Assembly: GCA_038883715.1 (NCBI GenBank) | Contig: JAVZLS010000007.1 | Span: 1 to 64,000 of the forward strand | From: Candidatus Bathyarchaeia archaeon | GTDB lineage: Archaea; Thermoproteota; Bathyarchaeia; Bathyarchaeales; Bathycorpusculaceae | Direction: 5' to 3' | DNA length: 64,000 nucleotides | Shown: one piece after another, positions 3,219 through 14,283 of the stretch | Numbering within the stretch: the first letter of the stretch is position 1 | How the letters are laid out: each line of letters opens with the position of its first letter | The notes under the pieces: generated by a model | What the model was told of the DNA's origin: nothing | The model's database searches: none | What the model saw: the letters and a program-made list of their open reading frames with translations, nothing else | Program-made: the position numbers and the translations under genes

Positions 3219-3641
3219 CTACATTTCTGGCAGTTTTGTTATGTCCCCTAATTTTTTAAAGTGTTTGTCGAAGGTGTAAATTTCGCTTATCCCATGAGCC
3301 TTCATGAATAAATAAGCCAAAGCATCATTGGCACCTATCTCTTTTTCTTTCGCCAATAGTAACGCTGCCTCATAGTCTTTTGCGCCAACCGAGTACACCT
3401 TCACATTCTCGCTTGTCACAACCCACGCCAAAAAGCCCAAAGATTCCTTAATGCCAAGTCCCGCCTCCACTACATTTACAACTTCTGAAAGGTGAACAAC
3501 TGTGATGGCGACCTCTTCACCCTCTTCTATCCTCTTCACAATGGCTTTGGCTTCGTCCTTAACTCTATGCTCATCTTTTGTTAGAGGTCTACGGGGGACC
3601 AAGTAAGCGTGAAGAAAAATGTTTGAATCTACAAACTTCAA
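3219..3641 (-). CDS. vapC: VapC PIN-domain toxin
   Basis: FVDSNIF, SEVV, NDAL and TFDKHF PIN motifs. Confidence 0.9.
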   Translation of the reverse strand: MKFVDSNIFLHAYLVPRRPLTKDEHRVKDEAKAIVKRIEEGEEVAITVVHLSEVVNVVEAGLGIKESLGFLAWVVTSENVKVYSVGAKDYEAALLLAKEKEIGANDALAYLFMKAHGISEIYTFDKHFKKLGDITKLPEM

Positions 3642-3880
3642 CGTTCCTTAAGCTCCGACAAAGCCTTCTTAAGAGCATGAGAATCAGTAAAATCCACATT
3701 TTCAGAAACTCTTATTGAGTCGAACAATGCGGAAGGTGGAAGTGCTTCCACAGAAACTATTTCTATCCTATTTCCCCGTTTTATCAGCGCCAGTTTACGA
3801 GATTTAAAATTCTTCCGCCAGCGTGCTGGAATCGACACTCTCCCTTGAGAGTCGATTTCTTTGACCACAATTTCTGCCAT
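3638..3880 (-). CDS. vapB: AbrB/MazE-type antitoxin
   Basis: IDSQGRVSIPARWR AbrB motif; overlaps the vapC start. Confidence 0.85.
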   Translation of the reverse strand: MAEIVVKEIDSQGRVSIPARWRKNFKSRKLALIKRGNRIEIVSVEALPPSALFDSIRVSENVDFTDSHALKKALSELKER

Positions 3881-3949
3881 TTATATCATCTTCACCAAAA
3901 ATATGAATATGGTGAAATATAAATATTCCCCAAAGAATTTATCATGCTG

Positions 3950-4603
3950 CTACCTTAGCTTGTAGCCCCACTTTTTATTTATTGCCTCAAGCTTTTCTGA
4001 AAGCCTCTTCGCCCTGTCTTCGGCTTCTTCGAAAAGGACAGCCCACTCCCGCCTCTTCACAAGGTTTGTCAGCTTCTCAATGTTTGATGGAATCTTTTCC
4101 ATGGCAGTCAGCCACTTCTTAGTTACAACATCGTCTCCGCTAACAAGTTCCAGGGCTTCTTCTGGACAAAACTCCACACATTGAGGTCCCTCTGGCTTAT
4201 CCTTGCATAGGTCACAGACCAAAACAGACGTCTTATCCGGGTGAAGAGAAATCCCACCATACGGGCAAGCCTGAATACACCAGCCGCATCGGTCACATTT
4301 AGCCTCATCAACAAGGATGAAGCCCTCCTCAGACTGGGTTAAGGCTTTCCTCGGACAAGCCCTAACACATGGGGCGTTCTCACAGAAGCGGCATGTCAAA
4401 GCCAGGTTAAAGGCTGGTGTTAGGCGTACAACCCTGATCCTAGACCTTAAAGGATTCCATAAAGGCTCATTCTTCTCCAAAACACAAACGTATTCGCATA
4501 GGCTGCAGCCCGTGCACTTGGCAGGGTCAACAGCCACAAACTTCCTCTGCACAGCCTTGGCCATCAACGCCATCTCCATCAATTTTGGGTTAAATTTTCT
4601 CAT
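3950..4603 (-). CDS. 4Fe-4S dicluster electron-transfer protein (HydN/CooF-like)
   Basis: Four Cys clusters including CRFCENAPCVRACP. Confidence 0.85.
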   Translation of the reverse strand: MRKFNPKLMEMALMAKAVQRKFVAVDPAKCTGCSLCEYVCVLEKNEPLWNPLRSRIRVVRLTPAFNLALTCRFCENAPCVRACPRKALTQSEEGFILVDEAKCDRCGWCIQACPYGGISLHPDKTSVLVCDLCKDKPEGPQCVEFCPEEALELVSGDDVVTKKWLTAMEKIPSNIEKLTNLVKRREWAVLFEEAEDRAKRLSEKLEAINKKWGYKLR

Positions 4604-4653
4604 GCAAAACCTATTTTTATAATTTCCCTTTTTAGCGGCTCAAATCAACATGG

Positions 4654-5361
4654 CTAAAGCAAAACCCTAACCCTTCCGTTAAGCCAAACCCTATTTTTGG
4701 CAAAACTCGCCGAGTAAGCATAAACCTCCACCCCCTGCCTATAGGCTTCCCGAAGAGCCCTGCCAAATTTTGGATCCGTCTCATCATTCGCTGTAAACCG
4801 GTAGGCATCGTCTCTTTGAATAACAAAAAGCACAGCAGCTCTATAACCATCCTTTAAGGCTTTAACAAGCTCAAAAAGTTGTCGCGTACCTCTCTCGGTT
4901 GGGGCGTCTGGAAACATTGCAATCCCGTAACGGACAAGAGTGCAAGACTTAACCTCTAAAAGGCATGATTTAAGCCCTAAACCTTCAAGGAGAAAGTCGA
5001 ACTTTGCACGCCCATAAGAGTGTTCAGGCTTAATGGCAGTATAACCGGAAAACTCCGGCAATTCCCCATTCCTTAAGGCTTTAAAAACAAGCTTGTTAGG
5101 TATGCGGGCATCAACAGAAACAACTCTGCCGCCATAATAAACGCCTACAAGGTCGTAAGCAGTTTTCCTATAACCGGTAATTCTCGCTTCCTTCAAAACA
5201 ACCTTAACGCCAGAAAACAGTAGCTCACCAAGCCTTCCTGGATTAGGCAAAAAGCACTCTACAATTTTCCCGTCAACCTCGACCTGTGCCGAGAAACGGG
5301 TCAGCCGTTTCCTAAAAACGCCTTCCACAATGTTTCCTTCAATTTCCAAGAAGGTGGGCAA
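4654..5361 (-). CDS. sfsA: SfsA sugar fermentation stimulation / PD-(D/E)xK nuclease-fold protein
   Basis: LPNPGRL, LEVKSCTL, FPDAPTERG motifs. Confidence 0.9.
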   Translation of the reverse strand: MPTFLEIEGNIVEGVFRKRLTRFSAQVEVDGKIVECFLPNPGRLGELLFSGVKVVLKEARITGYRKTAYDLVGVYYGGRVVSVDARIPNKLVFKALRNGELPEFSGYTAIKPEHSYGRAKFDFLLEGLGLKSCLLEVKSCTLVRYGIAMFPDAPTERGTRQLFELVKALKDGYRAAVLFVIQRDDAYRFTANDETDPKFGRALREAYRQGVEVYAYSASFAKNRVWLNGRVRVLL

Positions 5362-5417
5362 TCTTAACTCACAATTGGAATAGGCGCATTTTCGTGTTTA
5401 AATCTTATACTCAAAGT

Positions 5418-5490
5418 CTAGAGGGGGTAGCGAAAATAAAATTGTGAAGCTAGCGTATTTGTTAAATCCCAGCAGCCACAAATATGACCC
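5418..5490. repeat. Dispersed modular palindromic repeat, copy 1
   Basis: ctagagggggtagcgaaaataaa followed by gtatttgt-N15-acaaatat; modules shared with 16501-16620 and 52035-52196. Confidence 0.65.
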
Positions 5491-5497
5491 TACACTA

Positions 5498-6619
5498 CTA
5501 CGGAATTATCTCGCAACCAACATACTTTAAGAAGTTGAAATCCTCAACCCTTATCCTGCCAACTCTAATAAGCTCCCTAATTCTTGGCAGCTCAACCACT
5601 ATTGCGTCAATCATGTTCTCAACAGTCTTGCAAACAAGCCTATAGGCTTCGGGGCTCCAGCGTCTCGTGACATTTGCGTATAGGCATCTGCCGCCACAAA
5701 TGCCGAAAATTCCACAGCTTGTGCAAGGCTCGCCCACAAAAATCTTCCTAAGCCTCAATGGATGCGCAGTGCTAATATGCCCAACATAAAAGTCCCGCAT
5801 GCCCCACATGCTTGGACAAGGCACAATATGCCCATCCGTCTGAATAGCATAATTAATCCAACCAGCACCACAACGCAAAAGCGACTTTTCCTCACCAAGC
5901 AAAAGAGACTGCGCCACGTCCAAAAACGGGTAAAGCCTCAAAACAACGCCATGCTTCTCCATCTGGTCAACCCAAAACCTCACAAGGCGGCGAATTCCAG
6001 GATTATAACTTCTCTCAACCCATTCTTTGAAATTCCGCCTCTCAAAATCGTTCCAAAAGCCAGAGTTAAGCTGCCAATGAACAGAAGAAAAGGCAAAATC
6101 ACCATTGCCTAGAAGCCACAAAACCTGCCTATAAATGTCAGTTTCCTCCATAACAGTCATCCGAGCAATAACCTCACCATTAAAGCCATTACGCTTAATC
6201 TGCCTCAAATTCTCCACAACCCGACGGTAAACGCCCCTACCACGATAATAATCGGTTAGGGCCTCATCCCCATCAACAGACACCAGAATAACACTAAAAC
6301 GGTTGACATAGGCTGGTTCTAAACGGTTCAAATGCAAACCATTCGTCTGAACAGCAAAACCCCTAACTCCAACAAAATCCATAATCCGTCTAACATCATC
6401 CAAGCATAAAAGGGGCTCACCACCATAAAAAATCAAAAAACAATCAGAATCCAAACCACAAAAACGCCACAACGAGTCAACATCATAACTTAGACGCCTA
6501 GGCAGAGAATAATCAACATCAAAACCGCCAAAATTGTCAGCAAAATCTTCTAAGGCTTCACCAAAACAGTATCGGCAACGAAGATCACACTCAGTCGTCA
6601 ACATAACATGAAAGAACAT
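5498..6619 (-). CDS. Radical SAM/SPASM protein (resembles the AF0577/TIGR04084 putative peptide-modifying family)
   Basis: CDLRCRYC, YGGEPLL, RCGAG, CTSCGIFGICGGRC SPASM motif, GCEIIP C-terminus. Confidence 0.8.
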   Translation of the reverse strand: MFFHVMLTTECDLRCRYCFGEALEDFADNFGGFDVDYSLPRRLSYDVDSLWRFCGLDSDCFLIFYGGEPLLCLDDVRRIMDFVGVRGFAVQTNGLHLNRLEPAYVNRFSVILVSVDGDEALTDYYRGRGVYRRVVENLRQIKRNGFNGEVIARMTVMEETDIYRQVLWLLGNGDFAFSSVHWQLNSGFWNDFERRNFKEWVERSYNPGIRRLVRFWVDQMEKHGVVLRLYPFLDVAQSLLLGEEKSLLRCGAGWINYAIQTDGHIVPCPSMWGMRDFYVGHISTAHPLRLRKIFVGEPCTSCGIFGICGGRCLYANVTRRWSPEAYRLVCKTVENMIDAIVVELPRIRELIRVGRIRVEDFNFLKYVGCEIIP

Positions 6620-6646
6620 TCCAGCTCACCATCAAAGCAAAATCAA

Positions 6647-7870
6647 TTAGCCTTTGGTAAACTTTTCCTTAACCCGCTTAGCCTTCTCGATATAACTCCT
6701 AAGTTCACGCTCTTTAAGCGTTTTTTCAGGCAAAGTTTCAGGAGCAAACATTAAGGGAACAACGGCTAAAAATAGAAAGAGGGCGGCAAAGGAGAAAATG
6801 GCGTATTCGGGAATTATATCGGTTATAATTTGGCCAAGGGTCTCTCGGAGAAAATTTGAAACGAGGTACGGAATAATACCAATAGCATAGAACTTTTCAC
6901 TTGGCTTATCATGGGCGAGGTCTCCCCATATCGTAACTAAAAAAATCACGTAAAATATCCCCCAAGCAATCCCATCAACGATTGTATAAAATTGCCAAGC
7001 ATACACATTATAGGGATTAATCCCAAGTAGAGCATATCCAAGTCCAAAAATTATGAATCCAAAAATCAACGTTCGCTTACGCCCAACCTTATCTGCGGCG
7101 AAACCTGCCAACAAAGCAGAAATCCCTGCTATGACGTTCCCCGTAACTGTCAGAAAATTAACAAAATCCATGCTGTAAATTTTAGCGCTTATGGGCCAAC
7201 TTAAATAGTTGATTAAAGAAAACATTGCCCATGGAAAAAGGTAGAGAAACACTGAGCGACTTCGCAGAACAAGGATGAAGGATGGGCTTACTCCACGTTT
7301 CTCTTCCAAAAATCTCTTCAAGAGTATAAGACCAAAAATCTCGAGGGATCTCCAAAAAGCCAATACCACCGAATTTAAAAGCATATCTTCAGACATTAGA
7401 AATTTTAAGCTAAAAATCCCAAAAATTACCGAGAGCATAATGACTGAGCCCATCTTAGCACGGTTTTCCTCATTTGTTATGTCTTTAAAGCAAGAAATTA
7501 CTGTCGGTAAACTTATCCCAAAGGACATGCTAAACAAAATTGCAAGGATTACTATGCAATAAACTGGTAACGGCACCGCAAGCGTGAAGGAGGCAATCAC
7601 TCCAATTAAGACTGAAATTGACAGAAGACTTTTCAGTTTAGCAACTCTGCCAACAATAAAAGGTCCAAAAAGAATAGCCACAACAGTTTCAAAAAGCATT
7701 ATGCTGTAAATGGTTAATTTCACAGAATAGGCTAGATTAGCGATATCAACGGCGTTTTTAAGAATGGCGTACGCATATGTGTACCATGCTATTACACTAA
7801 CAGCTGCGATAATATTTCCTAAAAAAATCTTCAGCGAAATCCCTACCCTTGAAAAATGTATAGTAGTCAT
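6647..7870 (-). CDS. MFS transporter
   Basis: About 12 hydrophobic segments; GFAADKVGRKRT MFS motif A. Confidence 0.85.
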   Translation of the reverse strand: MTTIHFSRVGISLKIFLGNIIAAVSVIAWYTYAYAILKNAVDIANLAYSVKLTIYSIMLFETVVAILFGPFIVGRVAKLKSLLSISVLIGVIASFTLAVPLPVYCIVILAILFSMSFGISLPTVISCFKDITNEENRAKMGSVIMLSVIFGIFSLKFLMSEDMLLNSVVLAFWRSLEIFGLILLKRFLEEKRGVSPSFILVLRSRSVFLYLFPWAMFSLINYLSWPISAKIYSMDFVNFLTVTGNVIAGISALLAGFAADKVGRKRTLIFGFIIFGLGYALLGINPYNVYAWQFYTIVDGIAWGIFYVIFLVTIWGDLAHDKPSEKFYAIGIIPYLVSNFLRETLGQIITDIIPEYAIFSFAALFLFLAVVPLMFAPETLPEKTLKERELRSYIEKAKRVKEKFTKG

Positions 7871-7949
7871 TTTGTATCGTCATCTATTAATGCACTGCAA
7901 ACTGACCTAAAATAAGCTGTCGGATAAAAGGGTTTAGGATTTCAAAACT

Positions 7950-8020
7950 TGAGTTTTAATATATAATATAAAGCACAAAGCTTTTAAGTCGTAGTGTTGA
8001 ACAATAATACAGGAGAGGAG
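7950..8020 (+). promoter_or_regulatory. TATA-like region and strong RBS for the 18-aa ORF; divergent from the MFS gene
   Basis: ttttaatatataatata and cttttaagt boxes; aggagaggag at 8011-8020, 2 nt before the ATG. Confidence 0.55.
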
Positions 8021-8022
8021 AA

Positions 8023-8079
8023 ATGAAGACTCGTAAACGGAGGATACCAGCTAGGTATACTAACCTTGGCTGGTGGTAA
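8023..8079 (+). CDS. Putative precursor peptide MKTRKRRIPARYTNLGWW (18 aa)
   Basis: ATG 8023 to TAA 8079, strong RBS, C-terminal Trp-Trp; ends 3 bp from the prenyltransferase stop; too short for the ORF track. Confidence 0.65.
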   Translation: MKTRKRRIPARYTNLGWW

Positions 8080-8082
8080 AAG

Positions 8083-9069
8083 TTACAGATCTTCTAAAAC
8101 TGAACTTGCCATTTTTATAAGGGTATTTATGTTATTAGAATTATATTTCTTTAATTTTTGGCAAGTTTTATTTGCCAAATTCTGAATTTCGATTTCAAAT
8201 TCTTTGACAGTTTTCGTTTTTGAGACAATTTCAGCAACTTTAAAGGCGTCGTCCTCGCTTAATGTTTCCTTTTTAAGTATATCCAAAATTTTTACTCTCG
8301 AATCTTGGTCGCAAAGAGCATATAATATTGGCAAAGGTAGACATTCGTTGTCTCTTCTATTTTTTAGCTCTTCAACCTCAAAAATGTCAATGAATTCGTC
8401 TCTAAAACTCATTAACATACCCAATGATCTGCCAATTTTTCTCCAGTCTTTAATTTTTGGTTGTGTGGCATTCCCTATTATTGCGCCTGTCCATGCTGTA
8501 GCTTCAGAAACAGCCGCCTTTCTCCTGAGAACTTCCAAATATTTTTCTGGAGCGGTATTCCAATCACGTTTGAAGCTTGCCTCCATCGCTTCGGCCACTC
8601 CAAGTTCGGTGAACCCGTTCTCTATAATTTCCTTTATAGTCTCACCCTTTCTCTTCGGAAAATCTCTGCAAGCTACATCCAAAAGTCTAACACCCTCAAA
8701 TAATAATGCATCCCCTGTAAGAAGCGCGATGTCTACGCCGAATTTTCCGAAAATTGTGGCTTTTGAACCTTTATATCTTGATCCATCTATGATGTCGTCA
8801 TGAAGGTCAGCAGCACCTGTTAAGAGCACAAGTGCGGCGCCCACTATTGTTGTCTTTTCAGGTTTACCGCCTACAGCTTCACATGCTATAGCAAGAAGGG
8901 CTGGGTGATGAAAGTTGTGCCATGATTCTATGAAATATTTTATTGCTTCATTTATTTGGTTGCACTCTAAGTCTTTCTTCAGAATTGTTTCCTTCGCAAT
9001 TTCATAGGCTCTTCTTCCAAGCCGTTCACACTCTTCTATAATTTCTTCCGCAATTTTCCTGCTGTTCAT
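8083..9069 (-). CDS. Divergent polyprenyl-synthase-fold prenyltransferase (ComQ-like candidate)
   Basis: First DDIID motif intact; GKRxRP, RRG, GQ and KT motifs absent; second Asp motif degenerate (RDEFID); ATG at 9069 overlaps the upstream TGA. Confidence 0.8.
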   Translation of the reverse strand: MNSRKIAEEIIEECERLGRRAYEIAKETILKKDLECNQINEAIKYFIESWHNFHHPALLAIACEAVGGKPEKTTIVGAALVLLTGAADLHDDIIDGSRYKGSKATIFGKFGVDIALLTGDALLFEGVRLLDVACRDFPKRKGETIKEIIENGFTELGVAEAMEASFKRDWNTAPEKYLEVLRRKAAVSEATAWTGAIIGNATQPKIKDWRKIGRSLGMLMSFRDEFIDIFEVEELKNRRDNECLPLPILYALCDQDSRVKILDILKKETLSEDDAFKVAEIVSKTKTVKEFEIEIQNLANKTCQKLKKYNSNNINTLIKMASSVLEDL

Positions 9070-10103
9070 ATCGCCCACATCCAACCGCTTATGGCACTCC
9101 TGATTTTAATATATATGCAATAAACTTCTAAAATATGCCTTTTATACATCCATTTTCTTAGCTTAACACCCAGTAATAGATTTAGGCCGTAGGCACGTCT
9201 CCAAAGTTTTTCAAATAGCATCATATCATTTTCTGCTATTGCCTGAGCGGCTAGTTCTCCGCCCAAAAGCGCGTAGGGTATGCCTTCTCCATTTATAGGA
9301 TTAACATGTCCTGCCGCATCGCCTATAAGCACCCAATTTGGCCCGGCAACATGACTAAAAAGAGTGCCAGTTTCTTTTACATTTGGAATTAAAGCAGCCC
9401 ATTTCGAAATGATTTTGGTATTAGGACGATTTCTTTTGATGAACAAATCGAGCTCTTTTCTTAGATTTTTGGAATGCGTAGCTTCTGAGCAACCTATCCC
9501 GACGCATGTGTTATCTTTTCTTGGTATTATCCAAATGTAACCTTTTCTGTGGGGAAGAAAATGAAAAGAAATATCCTCGTTTTCAAGATTTTCCACGTAA
9601 TATCCACAACATACGCCTTTATCCGCATTTCTAAATGGGGTGGTGACCTTTTTTTTAACTATGCTGTTAACACCATCTGCACCCACTAACTTTTTAACTG
9701 GATAAATGCTTTTGGCAGTTATTATGTTCCATAATTTCCCTTTTCTCTGAACGTCTACAACCTTTTCCCTTTTAAGCTCAGCACCCTTATCCAAAGCCAT
9801 AGTCAGTAAATATTGGTCGAATTTTAATCTTGACACGCATATGGCTTCACTTTTCTTTAGGTTGACGGAAATTCTCCGTCCGTAAGGGGATACAAGGTAA
9901 ATCACTCTCCTTTTAATGGGATCTATGGGAAGTTTTCTTAAAAATGGGAAAAGCTCTTGGGCTAATGGCGATATTAATCCGCCACATGGTTTTTCTCTTG
10001 GATGCGAGTGATCAAATATGGTTGGGTATATGCCGTTTTCTGCAAGTTTGTACGCACAATAGGCTCCTGCTGGTCCTCCACCTACAATTCCTACTTCAAT
10101 CAT
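9066..10103 (-). CDS. Geranylgeranyl reductase family FAD oxidoreductase
   Basis: GGGPAG, KPCGG, GADG, GYIWIIP, GDAAGHVNPINGEGI motifs. Confidence 0.88.
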   Translation of the reverse strand: MIEVGIVGGGPAGAYCAYKLAENGIYPTIFDHSHPREKPCGGLISPLAQELFPFLRKLPIDPIKRRVIYLVSPYGRRISVNLKKSEAICVSRLKFDQYLLTMALDKGAELKREKVVDVQRKGKLWNIITAKSIYPVKKLVGADGVNSIVKKKVTTPFRNADKGVCCGYYVENLENEDISFHFLPHRKGYIWIIPRKDNTCVGIGCSEATHSKNLRKELDLFIKRNRPNTKIISKWAALIPNVKETGTLFSHVAGPNWVLIGDAAGHVNPINGEGIPYALLGGELAAQAIAENDMMLFEKLWRRAYGLNLLLGVKLRKWMYKRHILEVYCIYIKIRSAISGWMWAI

Positions 10104-10425
10104 TTCCAATCTTGTCTTGTATTAATCCTACTACTGTGTTGTAGCATGTTTCTATGTATGTTTTTCCTTTCTCTGTTATGGCGTATACTTTTCTTATGCG
10201 TTTTCCTTTTTGTTGTTTTTGGCTTGTTATTAGGCCTTTGTTTTCAAGCTTTTTTAGTAGTGGGTATAGGGCTCCGTGGCGTATTTTTAGCCCAGAGAAG
10301 GCTTCTATTTTCTTTTTTATTTTGTATCCCCATGCCGGCTCTTTGTTTATTAGTGCTAATATTTGGATGTCTAGTAGGTTTTTGGTTATGTGTTGAACAA
10401 TTTCTTTTTTGAGGTTTTCTTCCAT
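10096..10425 (-). CDS. PadR family regulator
   Basis: WGYKI, GALYPLLKKLE, RKVYAITEKG. Confidence 0.88.
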   Translation of the reverse strand: MEENLKKEIVQHITKNLLDIQILALINKEPAWGYKIKKKIEAFSGLKIRHGALYPLLKKLENKGLITSQKQQKGKRIRKVYAITEKGKTYIETCYNTVVGLIQDKIGND

Positions 10426-10590
10426 TTTGTTTTGCCTTTTTATGTTCTGTTTTTGACTTATTCTTGTTGGGTTTATATGGATTATGCATGTTTTGGAATA
10501 GCGTTTTGTTATGCCTTTGTTATGCTTTTTTATGTTTGTGGTAGGTGTGAACCTTTATATTTTTGTTTATGCTTTATAGAGTCTTGAGAT

Positions 10591-11076
10591 ATGTCTAAAA
10601 GTGGACATATCGTATTCGTGTCTAACAGAAATACAGGAAAGGTGGGAAAAGCCGTGGTGAACAGCTCGAAAGAGGTCCAAGTTAAACTTATGAAGGGCCT
10701 CCTAGACCTGATAGTGCTTCAGTTTTTAAGCTCTCAACCCATGCACGGCTATCAGATAATAACCAAGATCCGCAAAAACTTCGGTGTATACTTTGGCCCA
10801 AGCACAATTTACCCGCTTTTAAACGCCTTGGAAAAGAGCGGCTATGTCAAAAGTGAATGGGACATGTCAAACGAACGCCCCAGAAAAGTTTACAAGCTTA
10901 CGGCTGAGGGGCAAAACCTCCTGAACTTTACAGAGGATTCGCTTAACTTCATTTGCAAAAAGATTGGCGCCGCTGGAGTTCCGAAGGGACCAACCATAGG
11001 CGAGGACTTGACACAGCCAGCTTTGCACTCTCTCTTAAAGAGGGTGGAGAAGCATAACCACGGATTCAGCTTCTAA
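10591..11076 (+). CDS. PadR family regulator (true start probably GTG near 10654)
   Basis: MHGYQI, STIYPLLNALE, RKVYKLTAEG. Confidence 0.88.
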   Translation: MSKSGHIVFVSNRNTGKVGKAVVNSSKEVQVKLMKGLLDLIVLQFLSSQPMHGYQIITKIRKNFGVYFGPSTIYPLLNALEKSGYVKSEWDMSNERPRKVYKLTAEGQNLLNFTEDSLNFICKKIGAAGVPKGPTIGEDLTQPALHSLLKRVEKHNHGFSF

Positions 11077-11175
11077 AACCAGCCTAATGGGCTTTGCTTG
11101 CGGAAGGGAGAAGGCCCGGAAAATCAAGTAGCCAGCTAGCGCACTTTTTATTTTTCACGCACTCTTTTAGTTTTT

Positions 11176-12501
11176 GTGATGCTTGTGAAGGCTGACATCC
11201 TGATTTATGGATGCACAGTTTTACCTATGAAGGACGGCGGCGTAGACGCTATTGAGGATGGTGCCATAGCCATAAAGGATGAGGAGATAGTTTTTGTCGG
11301 AAAACGGGAGTCGGCGGTTGGCATTTCCGCAGATGAAAAGATAAACGCGAAAGGTAAAGCTGCACTGCCAGGGTTGATAAATTGTCACACTCATGTGGCC
11401 ATGGCTCTTTTTAGGGGGTTGGCCGAAGACAAACCTTTGGACGTATGGCTGCGGGAGACGATATGGCCTTTGGAGGCTAAGTTGACGCGGGACGATGTTT
11501 ATGTTGGGGCCCTTTTGGGCTGTTTGGAAATGCTGAAAAGTGGGACCACATGCTTTGCAGACATGTATTTCTATGAGGATGCGGTTGCCAAGGCTGTTTT
11601 TGAAAGCGGTTTAAGGGCTGTTTTGGCTGAAGGCATCATTGAAGCTGGGGATAAGGCACGAGGCGAGAAGATGCTAAACGCTAGCGTCAACTTCGCAAAG
11701 TCCTTTAATGGATATGCAGATGGAAGAGTGAAAACAATGCTTGGGCCTCATGCGGCTTACAGTTGCAGCCCAGAGCTGCTTGCCGAAGCTAGGGATAAAG
11801 CCCAAGAGCTTGGGATTGGCGTTCATATTCACTTAGCTGAGTCGGCGGAACTGTTCAAGGAATATGAGGAAAAGTACGGCTGTGGCGAAGTTGAATTCTT
11901 GGACAGACTTGGATTTTTTGGCGTTCATGTCCTATCGGCCCACTGCATTAACTTAACCGAGAAGGATATGCACATGTTGGCGAGGCGCAACGTGAACGTC
12001 GTTTATGTGCCAGTGGCCAACATGAAGCTTGGGTTAAACGCCGCAAAAGCCAAAGAACTCATAGAGTTAGGGGTTAATACTGCGCTGGGGACCGATGGGC
12101 CGGCAAGTAATAATTCCCTTGACATGTTTGAGACTATGAAGTTTGGGGCTTTGCTCCAAAAATTCGTTTATAAGAAGCCCGAAGTCTTATCCGCCTATGA
12201 AGTTTTGAAGATGGCAACAATAAATGGGGCCAAGGCGCTAGGGCTGGAAAAGATTGTAGGCTCGTTAGAGGTTGGGAAGAAGGCGGACATAATCCTTATA
12301 GACCTTTCGAAACCTCATTTGAGGCCGCTGCACAACATTTATTCGGGCATATTGTATTCAGCCAAAGGGAGCGACGTGGACACGGTAATAGTTGACGGCA
12401 AAATCCTAGTGGAGAATAGAATTGTCAAAACGTTAGATGAGCACACGGTTGTTGAAAAAGCTGAAAAGCATGCTTTTGAGTTGCTGTCACGTAATCTTTA
12501 A
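11176..12501 (+). CDS. mtaD: Amidohydrolase, MTA/SAH (5'-deoxyadenosine) deaminase-like
   Basis: PGLINCHTH, HIHLAES, LGTDGPASNN. Confidence 0.8.
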   Translation: MMLVKADILIYGCTVLPMKDGGVDAIEDGAIAIKDEEIVFVGKRESAVGISADEKINAKGKAALPGLINCHTHVAMALFRGLAEDKPLDVWLRETIWPLEAKLTRDDVYVGALLGCLEMLKSGTTCFADMYFYEDAVAKAVFESGLRAVLAEGIIEAGDKARGEKMLNASVNFAKSFNGYADGRVKTMLGPHAAYSCSPELLAEARDKAQELGIGVHIHLAESAELFKEYEEKYGCGEVEFLDRLGFFGVHVLSAHCINLTEKDMHMLARRNVNVVYVPVANMKLGLNAAKAKELIELGVNTALGTDGPASNNSLDMFETMKFGALLQKFVYKKPEVLSAYEVLKMATINGAKALGLEKIVGSLEVGKKADIILIDLSKPHLRPLHNIYSGILYSAKGSDVDTVIVDGKILVENRIVKTLDEHTVVEKAEKHAFELLSRNL

Positions 12502-12544
12502 GTAACAGCCAACAAACTGTGTCTATTTCACTAAGGAATAGGAA

Positions 12545-13501
12545 ATGGCGCCGATAATCCGCATAGTGAATCTCACAAAAAAGTTCGGCAATTTCACGGC
12601 AGTCGACCATCTAAACCTTGAGGTAGAAGAAGGCGAAATTCTCGGAATCCTTGGACCTAATGGGGCTGGGAAGACGACAACTTTGCTCATGCTCACAACC
12701 GTTATCAAGCCGACTGAGGGAACAGCATACATTGGATCTTATGACGTTACTAAAGAGCCGGATAAGGCCAGAACTCTCGTGGGGATGGCTTTCCAAGAGC
12801 CTAAGCTTTTGTGGGTTGACTCGCCTTGGGACATACTAAACTGGCACGCTAAGGTTTGTGGTTTATCACCGGACGAGCGTAGGAAGAGGGTGAGGTGGGC
12901 TCTTGAGGAGCTTGAGCTTTGGAACGACCGTTTCAAGAGCGTGCATGCCTTTTCTGGTGGCATGCGGAAGCGGGTGGAAATAGCCAAAATCCTGATTCAG
13001 AGACCTAAAATTGCCATTGTTGATGAACCGACCGCCCAAATAGATGTTGTGGGCAAGCATAGGATATGGAACATGCTACGGGACCTTAGAGATGAGGGTT
13101 CCACGATACTTTTGGCGACAAATGAGCTTTACGAGGCTGATGTGCTCTCGGACAGGGTGGCAATAATGCATAAAGGCAAACTGCTTGTCTGCGACGAGCC
13201 TAAAAAGTTGAAGGACAGCATACCCGGCGGAGACGTTGTGGAAATAACCCTTGAAAAGGACGCTTCGGAGAAGGTTCTTGAAAAGTTGAAGGAGGTTCCG
13301 CGGGTTGTCAATGTTTTGGCGATAAAGCAGAACCACTTGAAAATCTACTTGAATCAGGCTGAGGAGGTTTTGCCGAAAATCACAGAGTTCTTTATGAAGA
13401 TGCATGTACAGGTTAGGTCTATACGTATGAGTGAGCCCTCGCTGGACGACGTTTTCGCGCATTATACTGGCTTAACTATTGAAGAGGCCCAGAGGGAATG
13501 A
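12545..13501 (+). CDS. ABC-2 exporter ATP-binding subunit (DrrA-like)
   Basis: GPNGAGKTT, FSGGM, DEPT. Confidence 0.92.
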   Translation: MAPIIRIVNLTKKFGNFTAVDHLNLEVEEGEILGILGPNGAGKTTTLLMLTTVIKPTEGTAYIGSYDVTKEPDKARTLVGMAFQEPKLLWVDSPWDILNWHAKVCGLSPDERRKRVRWALEELELWNDRFKSVHAFSGGMRKRVEIAKILIQRPKIAIVDEPTAQIDVVGKHRIWNMLRDLRDEGSTILLATNELYEADVLSDRVAIMHKGKLLVCDEPKKLKDSIPGGDVVEITLEKDASEKVLEKLKEVPRVVNVLAIKQNHLKIYLNQAEEVLPKITEFFMKMHVQVRSIRMSEPSLDDVFAHYTGLTIEEAQRE

Positions 13502-14283
13502 TAAGCCTTCGAAAGGTCTGGATTGTCGCTGAAAGAGACATCAAGATGTTTTTACGTTACAAGTTTCTGCTAATAATGCGCGCCATATGGTTTGTTTCAC
13601 AAATAGCCCTCTTCGGCTTGGTTGTAAACCACATGTTTCGAGTTGACGTCCAAGCCGCTGTTGGAGGAAGCTACTTCAACTATTACGCTGCGGGAATAAT
13701 CATAACAATGCTTTATTCAACCACCGTCTTCATAGGTTATGACATTTACGAGGAGGCAGACCACGGCGTCATAGAATATTTGCTGAGCGTTCCTGTTTCA
13801 AGGAAAGAACTTGTTTTGGGCAGATCTATTGGAGGCGGCTTAAGAAGCTTCTTGTACGTCGGACCTATGATGCTTTTTATCCTCTACCTAATTGGAGTTT
13901 CAAACCTCCTTCAGCTTCTTGTGGCTTTACTATCCCTTTTTCTGTTTGCTTTTGGTGTGGCTGGCTTCAGCATCACTTTGGCTGTTAGCATAAAGTCTTC
14001 TGACCGGTTTGACATTTTGATGGGCGTCATTGACGCCTTAATAGTTAGGTTAAGCACAACGCTTTATCCAATAGCTTATATGCCACAATACTATCAAGGC
14101 ATTGCCTTAGTTAACCCATTAACATTTGCTGCCGACTTTTTCAGGTGGGGTGCCGGGCTAGAGTCAGCTGCTTCTGTCCCGCCTTTGTTGGCGGCTTTCG
14201 GCATAGTTGCCTTCTTCTCCATATTCACTTTTTTGGGCATTTTTTTGCATGAGCGTAGATTGGAGGGTGGAGGTTGGCAATAA
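13498..14283 (+). CDS. ABC-2 exporter permease
   Basis: Six TM segments, NPLT motif, follows the ATPase. Confidence 0.88.
   Translation: MISLRKVWIVAERDIKMFLRYKFLLIMRAIWFVSQIALFGLVVNHMFRVDVQAAVGGSYFNYYAAGIIITMLYSTTVFIGYDIYEEADHGVIEYLLSVPVSRKELVLGRSIGGGLRSFLYVGPMMLFILYLIGVSNLLQLLVALLSLFLFAFGVAGFSITLAVSIKSSDRFDILMGVIDALIVRLSTTLYPIAYMPQYYQGIALVNPLTFAADFFRWGAGLESAASVPPLLAAFGIVAFFSIFTFLGIFLHERRLEGGGWQ

Follow-up and report, generated by a model that had tools for sequence, protein, structure and literature searches.

A 64-kb stretch of DNA from a Candidatus Bathyarchaeia archaeon (contig JAVZLS010000007.1, positions 1 to 64,000; hereafter the window) carries three adjacent genes whose arrangement, together with their exchange between close relatives, suggests an undescribed archaeal lipopeptide system. 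A micro-ORF (open reading frame) of 18 codons plus a stop on the + strand (8023-8079) encodes a candidate precursor or substrate peptide, a polyprenyl-synthase-like gene on the - strand (PT, 8083-9069; 328 amino acids from the ATG at 9069; PF00348 at 76.6 bits) faces it, and a gene for a major facilitator superfamily (MFS) transporter on the - strand (6647-7870; PF07690) encodes a candidate exporter. The micro-ORF is conserved and bears the signature of a coding sequence, PT has lost motifs of canonical synthases, a cis-motif is shared between the micro-ORF and a divergent regulator gene, and the cassette is hypervariable. With a probability of about one half, and on the strength of sequence comparison, we hypothesize that this module is dedicated to attaching a lipid to the aromatic residue at the C-terminal end of the peptide and then exporting the product. 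The window belongs to an assembly of 1.33 Mb in 41 contigs. Its ORFs and its Pfam and NCBIfam matches were scanned over 3500-14000, and the genes were compared with those of 80 loci carrying PT relatives of 33-60% identity. The named PT relatives come nearly all from Bathyarchaeia metagenome-assembled genomes (MAGs), and the loci are MAG contigs among which kin are not independent.

The micro-ORF and PT are convergent in the window, with their stops 3 nt apart, and the stretch GGAGAGGAG, which resembles a Shine-Dalgarno (SD) sequence, lies 3 nt ahead of the micro-ORF ATG. The encoded peptide has six basic and zero acidic residues and ends in Gly-Trp-Trp. An earlier note made from this sequence alone had proposed that homologues of the enzyme be scanned for neighbouring short ORFs ending in Trp, and the scan recovered a convergent micro-ORF in which Trp is usually the last or next to last residue. 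Most of the 80 related loci have such a tiny ORF, antisense and directly past the PT stop, and the peptides share a plan consisting of Met, a Lys/Arg-rich stretch, a Lys/Arg-Pro-(Ile/Val/Met)-Arg core and a short hydrophobic end, usually with Trp. A strict rule drawn up post hoc (ATG start, at most 25 residues, at least three Lys or Arg among residues 1-10, Trp in the last four, and an aliphatic-Arg pair) is passed by 37 of 79 loci at this same antisense position, while elsewhere in the same loci it matches 50 times in 828,164 bp, or ~0.004 times expected per comparable stretch. The occurrence of the window's micro-ORF is far above chance, and no comparable micro-ORF lies behind the genome's canonical isoprenyl diphosphate synthase (IPPS) gene, which served as a control.

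An automated pick returned a micro-ORF candidate in 69 of the 80 rows having a PT stop, a count that includes at least seven doubtful or wrong picks (L022 and L082 in the wrong frame; L036, L051, L061, L063 and L067 weak). These candidates are 11-23 residues long (median 15), carry a median net charge of +5 and are separated from PT by a gap of -11 to +64 nt. Trp falls within the last four residues in 49 of the 69, being terminal in 19 and penultimate in 29; Gly-Trp occurs within the last five residues in 15, and some aromatic residue within the last five in 63. Over 54 peptides the conserved Arg is encoded by AGA (21), CGA (11), CGC (8), AGG (6), CGG (4) and CGT (3), the conserved Pro is written with four codons, and the start is ATG in 51. 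Because the conserved Arg uses all six of its codons, the codon record indicates that selection acts on the peptide at the amino-acid level.

One alternative is that the micro-ORF is mainly regulatory, either giving rise to an antisense transcript into the PT 3' end or encoding a leader peptide whose stalling would set the expression of PT or MFS. Convergent genes with almost no gap would suit such a role, as would the conservation of the micro-ORF promoter and operator described below, and poly-basic and Pro-Arg stretches can slow ribosomes. However, the amino-acid-level selection runs along the whole peptide, including its C-terminal aromatic end; the peptide changes with the PT and MFS alleles, which would be needless for a generic leader; and no match to a known RNA family is present in Rfam for 7700-8300 at E up to 1. 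A regulatory role is for these reasons judged distinctly improbable, and the micro-ORF is treated below as a gene for a peptide.

The enzyme that faces this peptide gene is a remodelled member of its family. The genome's canonical polyprenyl synthase is encoded elsewhere and scores 222 bits against 77 bits for PT, which lies below every NCBIfam synthase cut-off (best IdsA_Meth, 96.1 bits versus 468). PT keeps the first Asp-rich motif (FARM), which reads DDIID in the window; D91, D92 and D95 are invariant in alignment A1, and DDxxD is found in 78 of 80 rows. Relative to the canonical paralogue, GGKRWRP (general form GGKRxRP) is replaced by WxNFxHP, the His ahead of the FARM by Thr, RRG by KGS, and GKRT of the GK..K.T stretch by an invariant, family-specific NECLPLP, and the second Asp-rich motif (SARM) has changed from DDVLD to DEFID in the window's PT, with a family form of x-(E/D)-(F/Y)-x-D. 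The SARM was readable by pattern in 46 of 80 rows (34 unread), and in those its first position is free (D, E, N, H, K, A or S, with N in 4 of 46) and its second and fifth positions are acidic. In trans-IPPS enzymes the residues lost from PT hold isopentenyl diphosphate (IPP) and the diphosphates. Since the basic residues and intact SARM of the genome's canonical synthase are lost, PT probably does not elongate with IPP. The AF2 model of PT (pLDDT 95.0, pTM 0.92) has the all-alpha trans-IPPS fold, and its Foldseek matches are all chains of that fold.

PT could instead be a subunit, ordinary or regulatory, of the machinery that makes isoprenoid chains for membrane lipids, next to which the micro-ORF would be incidental. 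This would agree with the Pfam assignment of PT to polyprenyl_synt, with a geranylgeranyl diphosphate (GGPP) synthase as its top structural match, and with the co-translation in the window of a gene of the geranylgeranyl reductase (GGR) family. Yet a canonical synthase with a far higher score exists elsewhere in the genome, the residues of that paralogue are replaced in PT, only 12 of the 101 genomes sampled from the class have PT (E up to 1e-40), its hypervariability is unlike that of a housekeeping gene, and the micro-ORF statistics speak against an incidental ORF. We consider an enzyme of ordinary lipid synthesis highly improbable.

A hypervariable cassette, made up of PT, the micro-ORF and the greater part of the MFS gene, is set within a conserved frame, which includes a radical S-adenosylmethionine (rSAM) gene and the PadR-family gene PadR1; this hypervariability, like the shared operator-like motif ahead of the micro-ORF and the divergent PadR gene, goes beyond what the earlier note contained. 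Between loci L005 and L013 the DNA is 96% identical up to the PadR1 end and 92% identical from the last third of the MFS gene onward; between these flanks, where PT, the micro-ORF and the rest of the MFS gene lie, no similarity is detectable. The window and L020 share flanks of 84% and 78% identity around a diverged segment (window 6810-10153) without DNA similarity to L020 except in three short patches, one of them the micro-ORF promoter and operator (7965-8018, 80% match). The loci closest to the window by their flanks (L020, L077, L014, L019 and L013) are 78-86% identical in rSAM and 74-84% in PadR1, yet only 37-48% in PT and 39-52% in MFS, and the most similar PTs (L003, L063 and L009, 59-60%) sit in loci with less similar flanks.

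Congruence of the PT and rSAM histories is rejected by the approximately unbiased (AU) test, both for the PT clade on rSAM data (p 4e-54) and, on PT data, for the groups defined by their flanks (p 1e-46 and 4e-9), the groups having been chosen after the identity table and the other gene's tree had been seen; the PT tree (79 rows) and the rSAM/PT trees are all quick trees, and the peptide pick for L073 on the PT tree is wrong. The PT sisters L013 and L019 encode near-identical peptides, and the rSAM sisters L005 and L013 encode different ones. The peptide follows PT, not the flanks. These comparisons suggest that the cassette is swapped between close relatives in a manner that recalls, by analogy, the comQXP pherotypes. 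Contigs from two public runs (X1 and X2; labelled metatranscriptomic, probably DNA contigs) cover window 6670-10110 with a strain variant that has 19 substitutions and a 5-nt deletion at 7961; over 7853-8169 it differs solely by that deletion, so that the micro-ORF, the TATA-like box and the operator are unchanged.

Another alternative is that the peptide is unmodified, or modified by something other than PT, and is secreted to act on membranes or as an antimicrobial by virtue of its cationic, Trp/Arg/Pro-rich make-up. The MFS protein would then provide export and immunity, and PT would make a separate prenylated small molecule or lipid. Such a peptide would be well described by the median net charge of +5 and the hydrophobic or Trp end, bacteriocin and immunity loci have hypervariable cassettes of this kind, and the MFS gene is the most constant neighbour, following PT in 75 of 81 rows (the 80 loci plus the window; many loci end at contig edges, so that this and the other neighbour counts are lower bounds). 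However, the micro-ORF and PT are fixed in a tail-to-tail arrangement, peptide variation goes along with the PT tree, and PT is without the residues for ordinary isoprenoid elongation. We regard an unmodified or otherwise modified peptide as unlikely, if still credible.

The remaining genes of the locus bear on which proteins belong to the system. All of the elements listed in the earlier note, namely an MFS gene, a peptide ending in GWW, a PadR/GGR/PT operon, a divergent PadR gene and an rSAM gene with a SPASM domain, were recovered. The AT-rich block that it described is also real, with a GC fraction of 0.34-0.43 over 7001-10500 against 0.40-0.51 in most neighbouring bins, and its translationally coupled operon is confirmed by the gene overlaps: 8 nt (ATGATTGA) between PadR1 and the GGR-family gene, assuming that the latter starts at ATG, and 4 nt (ATGA) between the GGR-family gene and PT. 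Other parts of its picture were weakened or not upheld on comparison among loci.

The rSAM gene (5498-6619, - strand; TIGR04084 at 299.1 bits against a cut-off of 225, with the TIGR04085 SPASM domain at residues 250-319) lies downstream of the MFS gene, and a nearby rSAM gene in that position is found in 51 of 81 rows. One hypothesis is that the peptide is the substrate of this enzyme, for example for an Arg/Lys-to-Trp cross-link, and that PT is a secondary tailoring enzyme or is unrelated. Trp is joined to Arg or Lys by known rSAM enzymes (PMC11851443), the window's protein has weak similarity to the peptide maturases PapB, the DynA family and the YhhB family, and a 13-row PT clade without a nearby rSAM gene mostly has Tyr instead of Trp. 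However, rSAM sits in the conserved frame, with 59-86% identity to the window against 33-60% for PT and 27-52% for MFS, and it has no N-terminal extension before its CxxxCxxC motif. TIGR04084 is over its cut-off in 39 of the 101 sampled class genomes as against the 12 with PT; among those 12 it is adjacent to PT in six, elsewhere in five and absent over the cut-off in one, and six rSAM loci away from PT (L083-L088) have no PT, MFS or PadR gene within ~5 kb. The rSAM gene belongs to the conserved frame and is widespread without PT. These counts weaken its putative link to the peptide, and rSAM as the peptide maturase was downgraded to a quite unlikely option; lipidation by PT remains the preferred reading.

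The GGR-family flavoprotein gene (9066-10103 or 9066-10109, - strand; TIGR02032 at 175.8 bits against a cut-off of 158.8) had been counted in the earlier note as part of the proposed system. It is present in only 5 of 81 rows, and it was therefore rejected as a core part and is an accessory of the window's allele, outside the conserved cassette. No GGR match was found in L020, and the window's arrangement, with the gene between PadR1 and PT, recurs only in L077, where identities to the window are 63% for GGR, 84% for PadR1, 83% for rSAM, 37% for PT and 39% for MFS. The presence of the reductase beside so different a PT shows that it is not bound to a single allele of that gene. A second GGR-family gene lies elsewhere in the genome, on contig C5. 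Further from the cassette, at 3219-3880 on the - strand, two small overlapping ORFs (140 and 80 amino acids) look toxin-antitoxin-like by eye from their translations.

Upstream of the micro-ORFs the order is a TATA-like CTTTTAAG, the 17-nt operator-like TGTnnnACAnnAATACA, a purine-rich SD-like stretch and the ATG. The micro-ORF promoter region of the window (7980-8020, + strand) has the TATA-like GCTTTTAAG at 7980-7988, the operator-like motif at 7995-8011 and the SD-like stretch at 8012-8020. Among 50 of 63 rows (13 having been dropped for a non-ATG or uncertain start or a wrong ORF), the SD-like stretch is present in 38 and the TATA-like box and the operator-like motif in 33 each. The operator-like pattern occurs in 51 of 81 rows, almost always on the opposite strand and 39-138 nt past the PT stop. 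A second copy at 10619-10635 (+ strand, two mismatches to the pattern) lies just upstream of the divergent regulator gene PadR2 (10643-11076, + strand), and in nine rows including the window such a copy is found 6-17 nt ahead of the start of the PadR2 homologue; four further copies, in as many rows, are directed toward the MFS gene. Over the 64-kb window there are five matches to the pattern at up to two mismatches, against 0.4 expected, and two of the five are at this locus. Since eight related loci start their PadR homologue 13-17 nt past the motif, and the listed ATG at 10591 is upstream of the motif, the real start of PadR2 is probably near the GTG at 10643. About 3.3 kb downstream of the PT stop, L021 has a second operator-like motif followed by a short frame whose tail contains Gly-Trp, with a second MFS gene nearby, and this frame may be a second peptide gene.

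PadR1 (10096-10425, - strand) is the first gene of the PadR-(GGR)-PT operon, and the two PadR genes score 77.6 and 69.9 bits on PF03551 (cut-off 27). Each is found in 36 of 81 rows. We infer that the operator-like motif is the operator of one or both PadR proteins. The earlier note had PadR proteins replacing the ComP receptor kinase and ComA of Bacillus. PadR1 is conserved-frame DNA apart from its last ~19 codons, and its identity tracks that of rSAM (rho 0.94, n=16), which PT does not (rho 0.41-0.49), figures that are descriptive given that the kin are not independent. A PadR protein as an allele-specific receptor was downgraded, the PadR genes following the flanks and not the peptide, and PadR proteins are unlikely to be ComP-style receptors of that kind.

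Taken as a working model, the micro-ORF would be translated to an 11-23 residue cationic peptide, and PT would bind an allylic prenyl diphosphate through its FARM, IPP elongation having been given up. PT would then move the prenyl chain onto the aromatic residue at or next to the peptide C-terminus, Trp in most alleles, and the allele-matched MFS protein would export the resulting lipopeptide; in the window's allele, the co-translated GGR-family reductase may saturate the chain. PadR proteins would act as repressors on an operator common to the micro-ORF and padR2, which some loci also have at the MFS promoter. Close relatives exchange the trio as one block, and the product therefore probably acts between cells, either as a strain-specific signal or as an antagonistic peptide. 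The fullest form of the model, which we put forward tentatively and at somewhat less than even odds, is a pherotype-like locus in Bathyarchaeia and a few other archaeal MAGs, in which the C-terminal Trp or other aromatic residue of a leaderless 11-23 residue peptide is prenylated by an independently arisen, GGPP-synthase-derived enzyme, the product is exported by an allele-matched MFS protein, and the trio is swapped between near-identical genomes.

Several findings weigh against prenylation of a C-terminal Trp. The acceptor residue proposed in the earlier note is usual across loci and is not universal: Trp is missing in 19 of the 69 automated picks, at least seven picks in the set being doubtful; four clear alleles (L028, L040, L056 and L065) have no aromatic residue in the last five; and Trp is absent in two derived PT clades, the 13-row one without rSAM, mostly with Tyr, and a 5-row one with Phe or none. 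A seven-row PT clade (L036, L045, L051, L059, L061, L067 and L070) is without such a micro-ORF. The peptides have no leader and reach only a third to a fifth of the length of known precursors. The comparison of the enzyme with ComQ, also made in the earlier note, stands in part: the FARM is kept, the SARM is degenerate and the residues of the canonical paralogue are lost. However, the SARM keeps two of three acidic positions, so that the ComQ-type pseudo-SARM beginning with Asn-Asp (ND) is not reproduced, and the Gln that precedes the SARM in known Trp prenyltransferases is replaced by an Arg (R223, nearly invariant in alignment A1 and found in 45 of the 46 rows read). In addition, the PT model is closest to the archaeal GGPP synthase 1wy0 (TM 0.84), with the free-Trp farnesyltransferase Ord1 at rank 13 (TM 0.69), and a profile search of the PDB gives 105.7 bits for 1wy0 against ~71 bits for Ord1. 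These scores point to PT as an independent offshoot of archaeal GGPP synthase.

A number of loci show other arrangements of the same genes. The seven-row clade is well supported; in five of its rows an MFS gene lies ~2.4 kb upstream on the opposite strand, L036 has no MFS match, and the source records of two members (CP170178.1 and the Bathy6-F86 assembly) also carry the standard cassette. The peptide frames of L027, L030, L037, L038 and L048 have no ATG, GTG or TTG at the expected place and are open from the conserved upstream motif on, and these could be cases of a non-standard start or a decaying gene. L090 (4988-7034, from G077) has tandem PT paralogues, then one basic micro-ORF and then an MFS gene. 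PT relatives of ~500 amino acids and 37-41% identity with an N-terminal extension of ~200 residues were also found (P0044, P0052, P0086 and P0090; P0067 and P0097 by length only); each of the first four has two polyprenyl_synt Pfam stretches, and these proteins may reflect a partial tandem duplication. L075 comes from a contig labelled Candidatus Limnocylindrales bacterium (Chloroflexota); its PT relative, at 35% identity, is accompanied by an MFS gene and no micro-ORF of this type, and may reflect a transfer or wrong binning.

Hardly any cell-to-cell chemistry based on peptides is known from archaea. If the model is true, Archaea would gain their first described case of peptide prenylation and of a strain-specific signalling or antagonism system that uses peptides, few modified ribosomal peptides would be known with precursors as short, and an isoprenoid-synthase fold would have been recruited convergently to peptide lipidation in a second domain of life. 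The earlier note knew of no such archaeal system, and the searchable literature on archaeal and Bathyarchaeia RiPPs (peptides made by ribosomes and modified after translation), prenylated peptides and trans-IDS-like enzymes (those resembling trans-isoprenyl diphosphate synthases) likewise holds no archaeal case, subscription papers and supplements lying outside the search. The accessible text of papers on archaeal RiPPs and on peptide prenylation (PMC12144867; PMC13290415) names no archaeal prenylated peptide, the strings 'prenyl', 'Bathyarchae' and 'tryptophan' are all missing from the main text of the survey of archaeal RiPPs (PMC12144867), and 'archaea' is missing from the available text of PMC4008528. 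The micro-ORF is below the size limits of gene callers, so that the system is invisible in current annotation. The cassette offers a testable entry point, with three small genes, a predicted chemistry of one step and natural allele pairs in near-identical backgrounds (L005/L013), and a thermophile-derived enzyme for very short cationic peptides could serve enzymatic peptide lipidation.

How does the cassette compare with known systems? The trans-IDS-like enzymes ComQ, PalQ, StheQ and ChrPC-P (the P domain of ChrPC) prenylate a Trp near the C-terminus of an adjacently encoded peptide (PMC10853753; PMC13290415; preprint 10.64898/2026.08.29.745113), and the peptide prenyltransferases of this class all act on Trp as far as characterised (PMC13290415). 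The cassette resembles these systems in outline and is not a member of them. Like ComQ and ComX of the Bacillus ComQXPA system, it pairs an enzyme of the polyprenyl-synthase fold, with a kept FARM and a degenerate SARM, with a short gene for a peptide with a Trp near its C-terminus, and in both cases the enzyme, the peptide and part of a membrane partner are polymorphic inside a conserved frame (PMC5331326; PMC4008528). In Bacillus the polymorphic genes are comQ, comX and the N-terminal part of comP, and some com-like loci have a hypothetical comX on the opposite strand (PMC4008528). In contrast, the host here is an archaeon, the peptides of 11-23 residues are leaderless whereas ComX has 52-73 (PMC4008528), the co-varying membrane protein is an MFS transporter, and the regulators are PadR proteins that do not co-vary; no ComP-type histidine kinase or ComA-type response regulator is present among the ORFs and the Pfam and NCBIfam matches of 3500-14000. 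In most of the rows read, the degenerate SARM of PT also differs from NDxxx or GDxxx in ComQ (PMC5331326) and N-D-x-x-D in StheQ (preprint 10.64898/2026.08.29.745113).

PalQ of Paenibacillus alvei favours a terminal Trp after Gly (PMC10853753; PMC13290415), and its acceptor at the very C-terminus of PalX, with Gly before it, is similar to the Gly-Trp-Trp end of the window's peptide. PalX, unlike that peptide, has an NHLP leader domain, its locus has a histidine kinase neighbour, and the Gln directly upstream of the SARM, common to known Trp prenyltransferases (PMC13290415), is absent from PT. StheQ of Sphaerobacter thermophilus and Ord1 share with PT the IPPS fold, the FARM and a SARM that departs from the canonical form; StheQ prenylates the Trp that is next to last in the product of an adjacent ORF (preprint 10.64898/2026.08.29.745113), an arrangement like that proposed here except that StheX has 69 residues, and Ord1 is among the fold matches of PT but behind a dozen true synthases. 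The archaeal GGPP synthase 1wy0 is the top profile and fold match for PT, both belonging to PF00348, but the GGKRxR, His, RRG, SARM DDxxD and GK..K.T elements of the genome's own canonical synthase are all replaced in PT. The cassette is placed outside these known systems because PT has no pre-SARM Gln and is closer to a GGPP synthase than to Ord1, because a kinase and response regulator are missing from the scanned region, and because short leaderless peptides are joined to a transporter as the co-varying partner.

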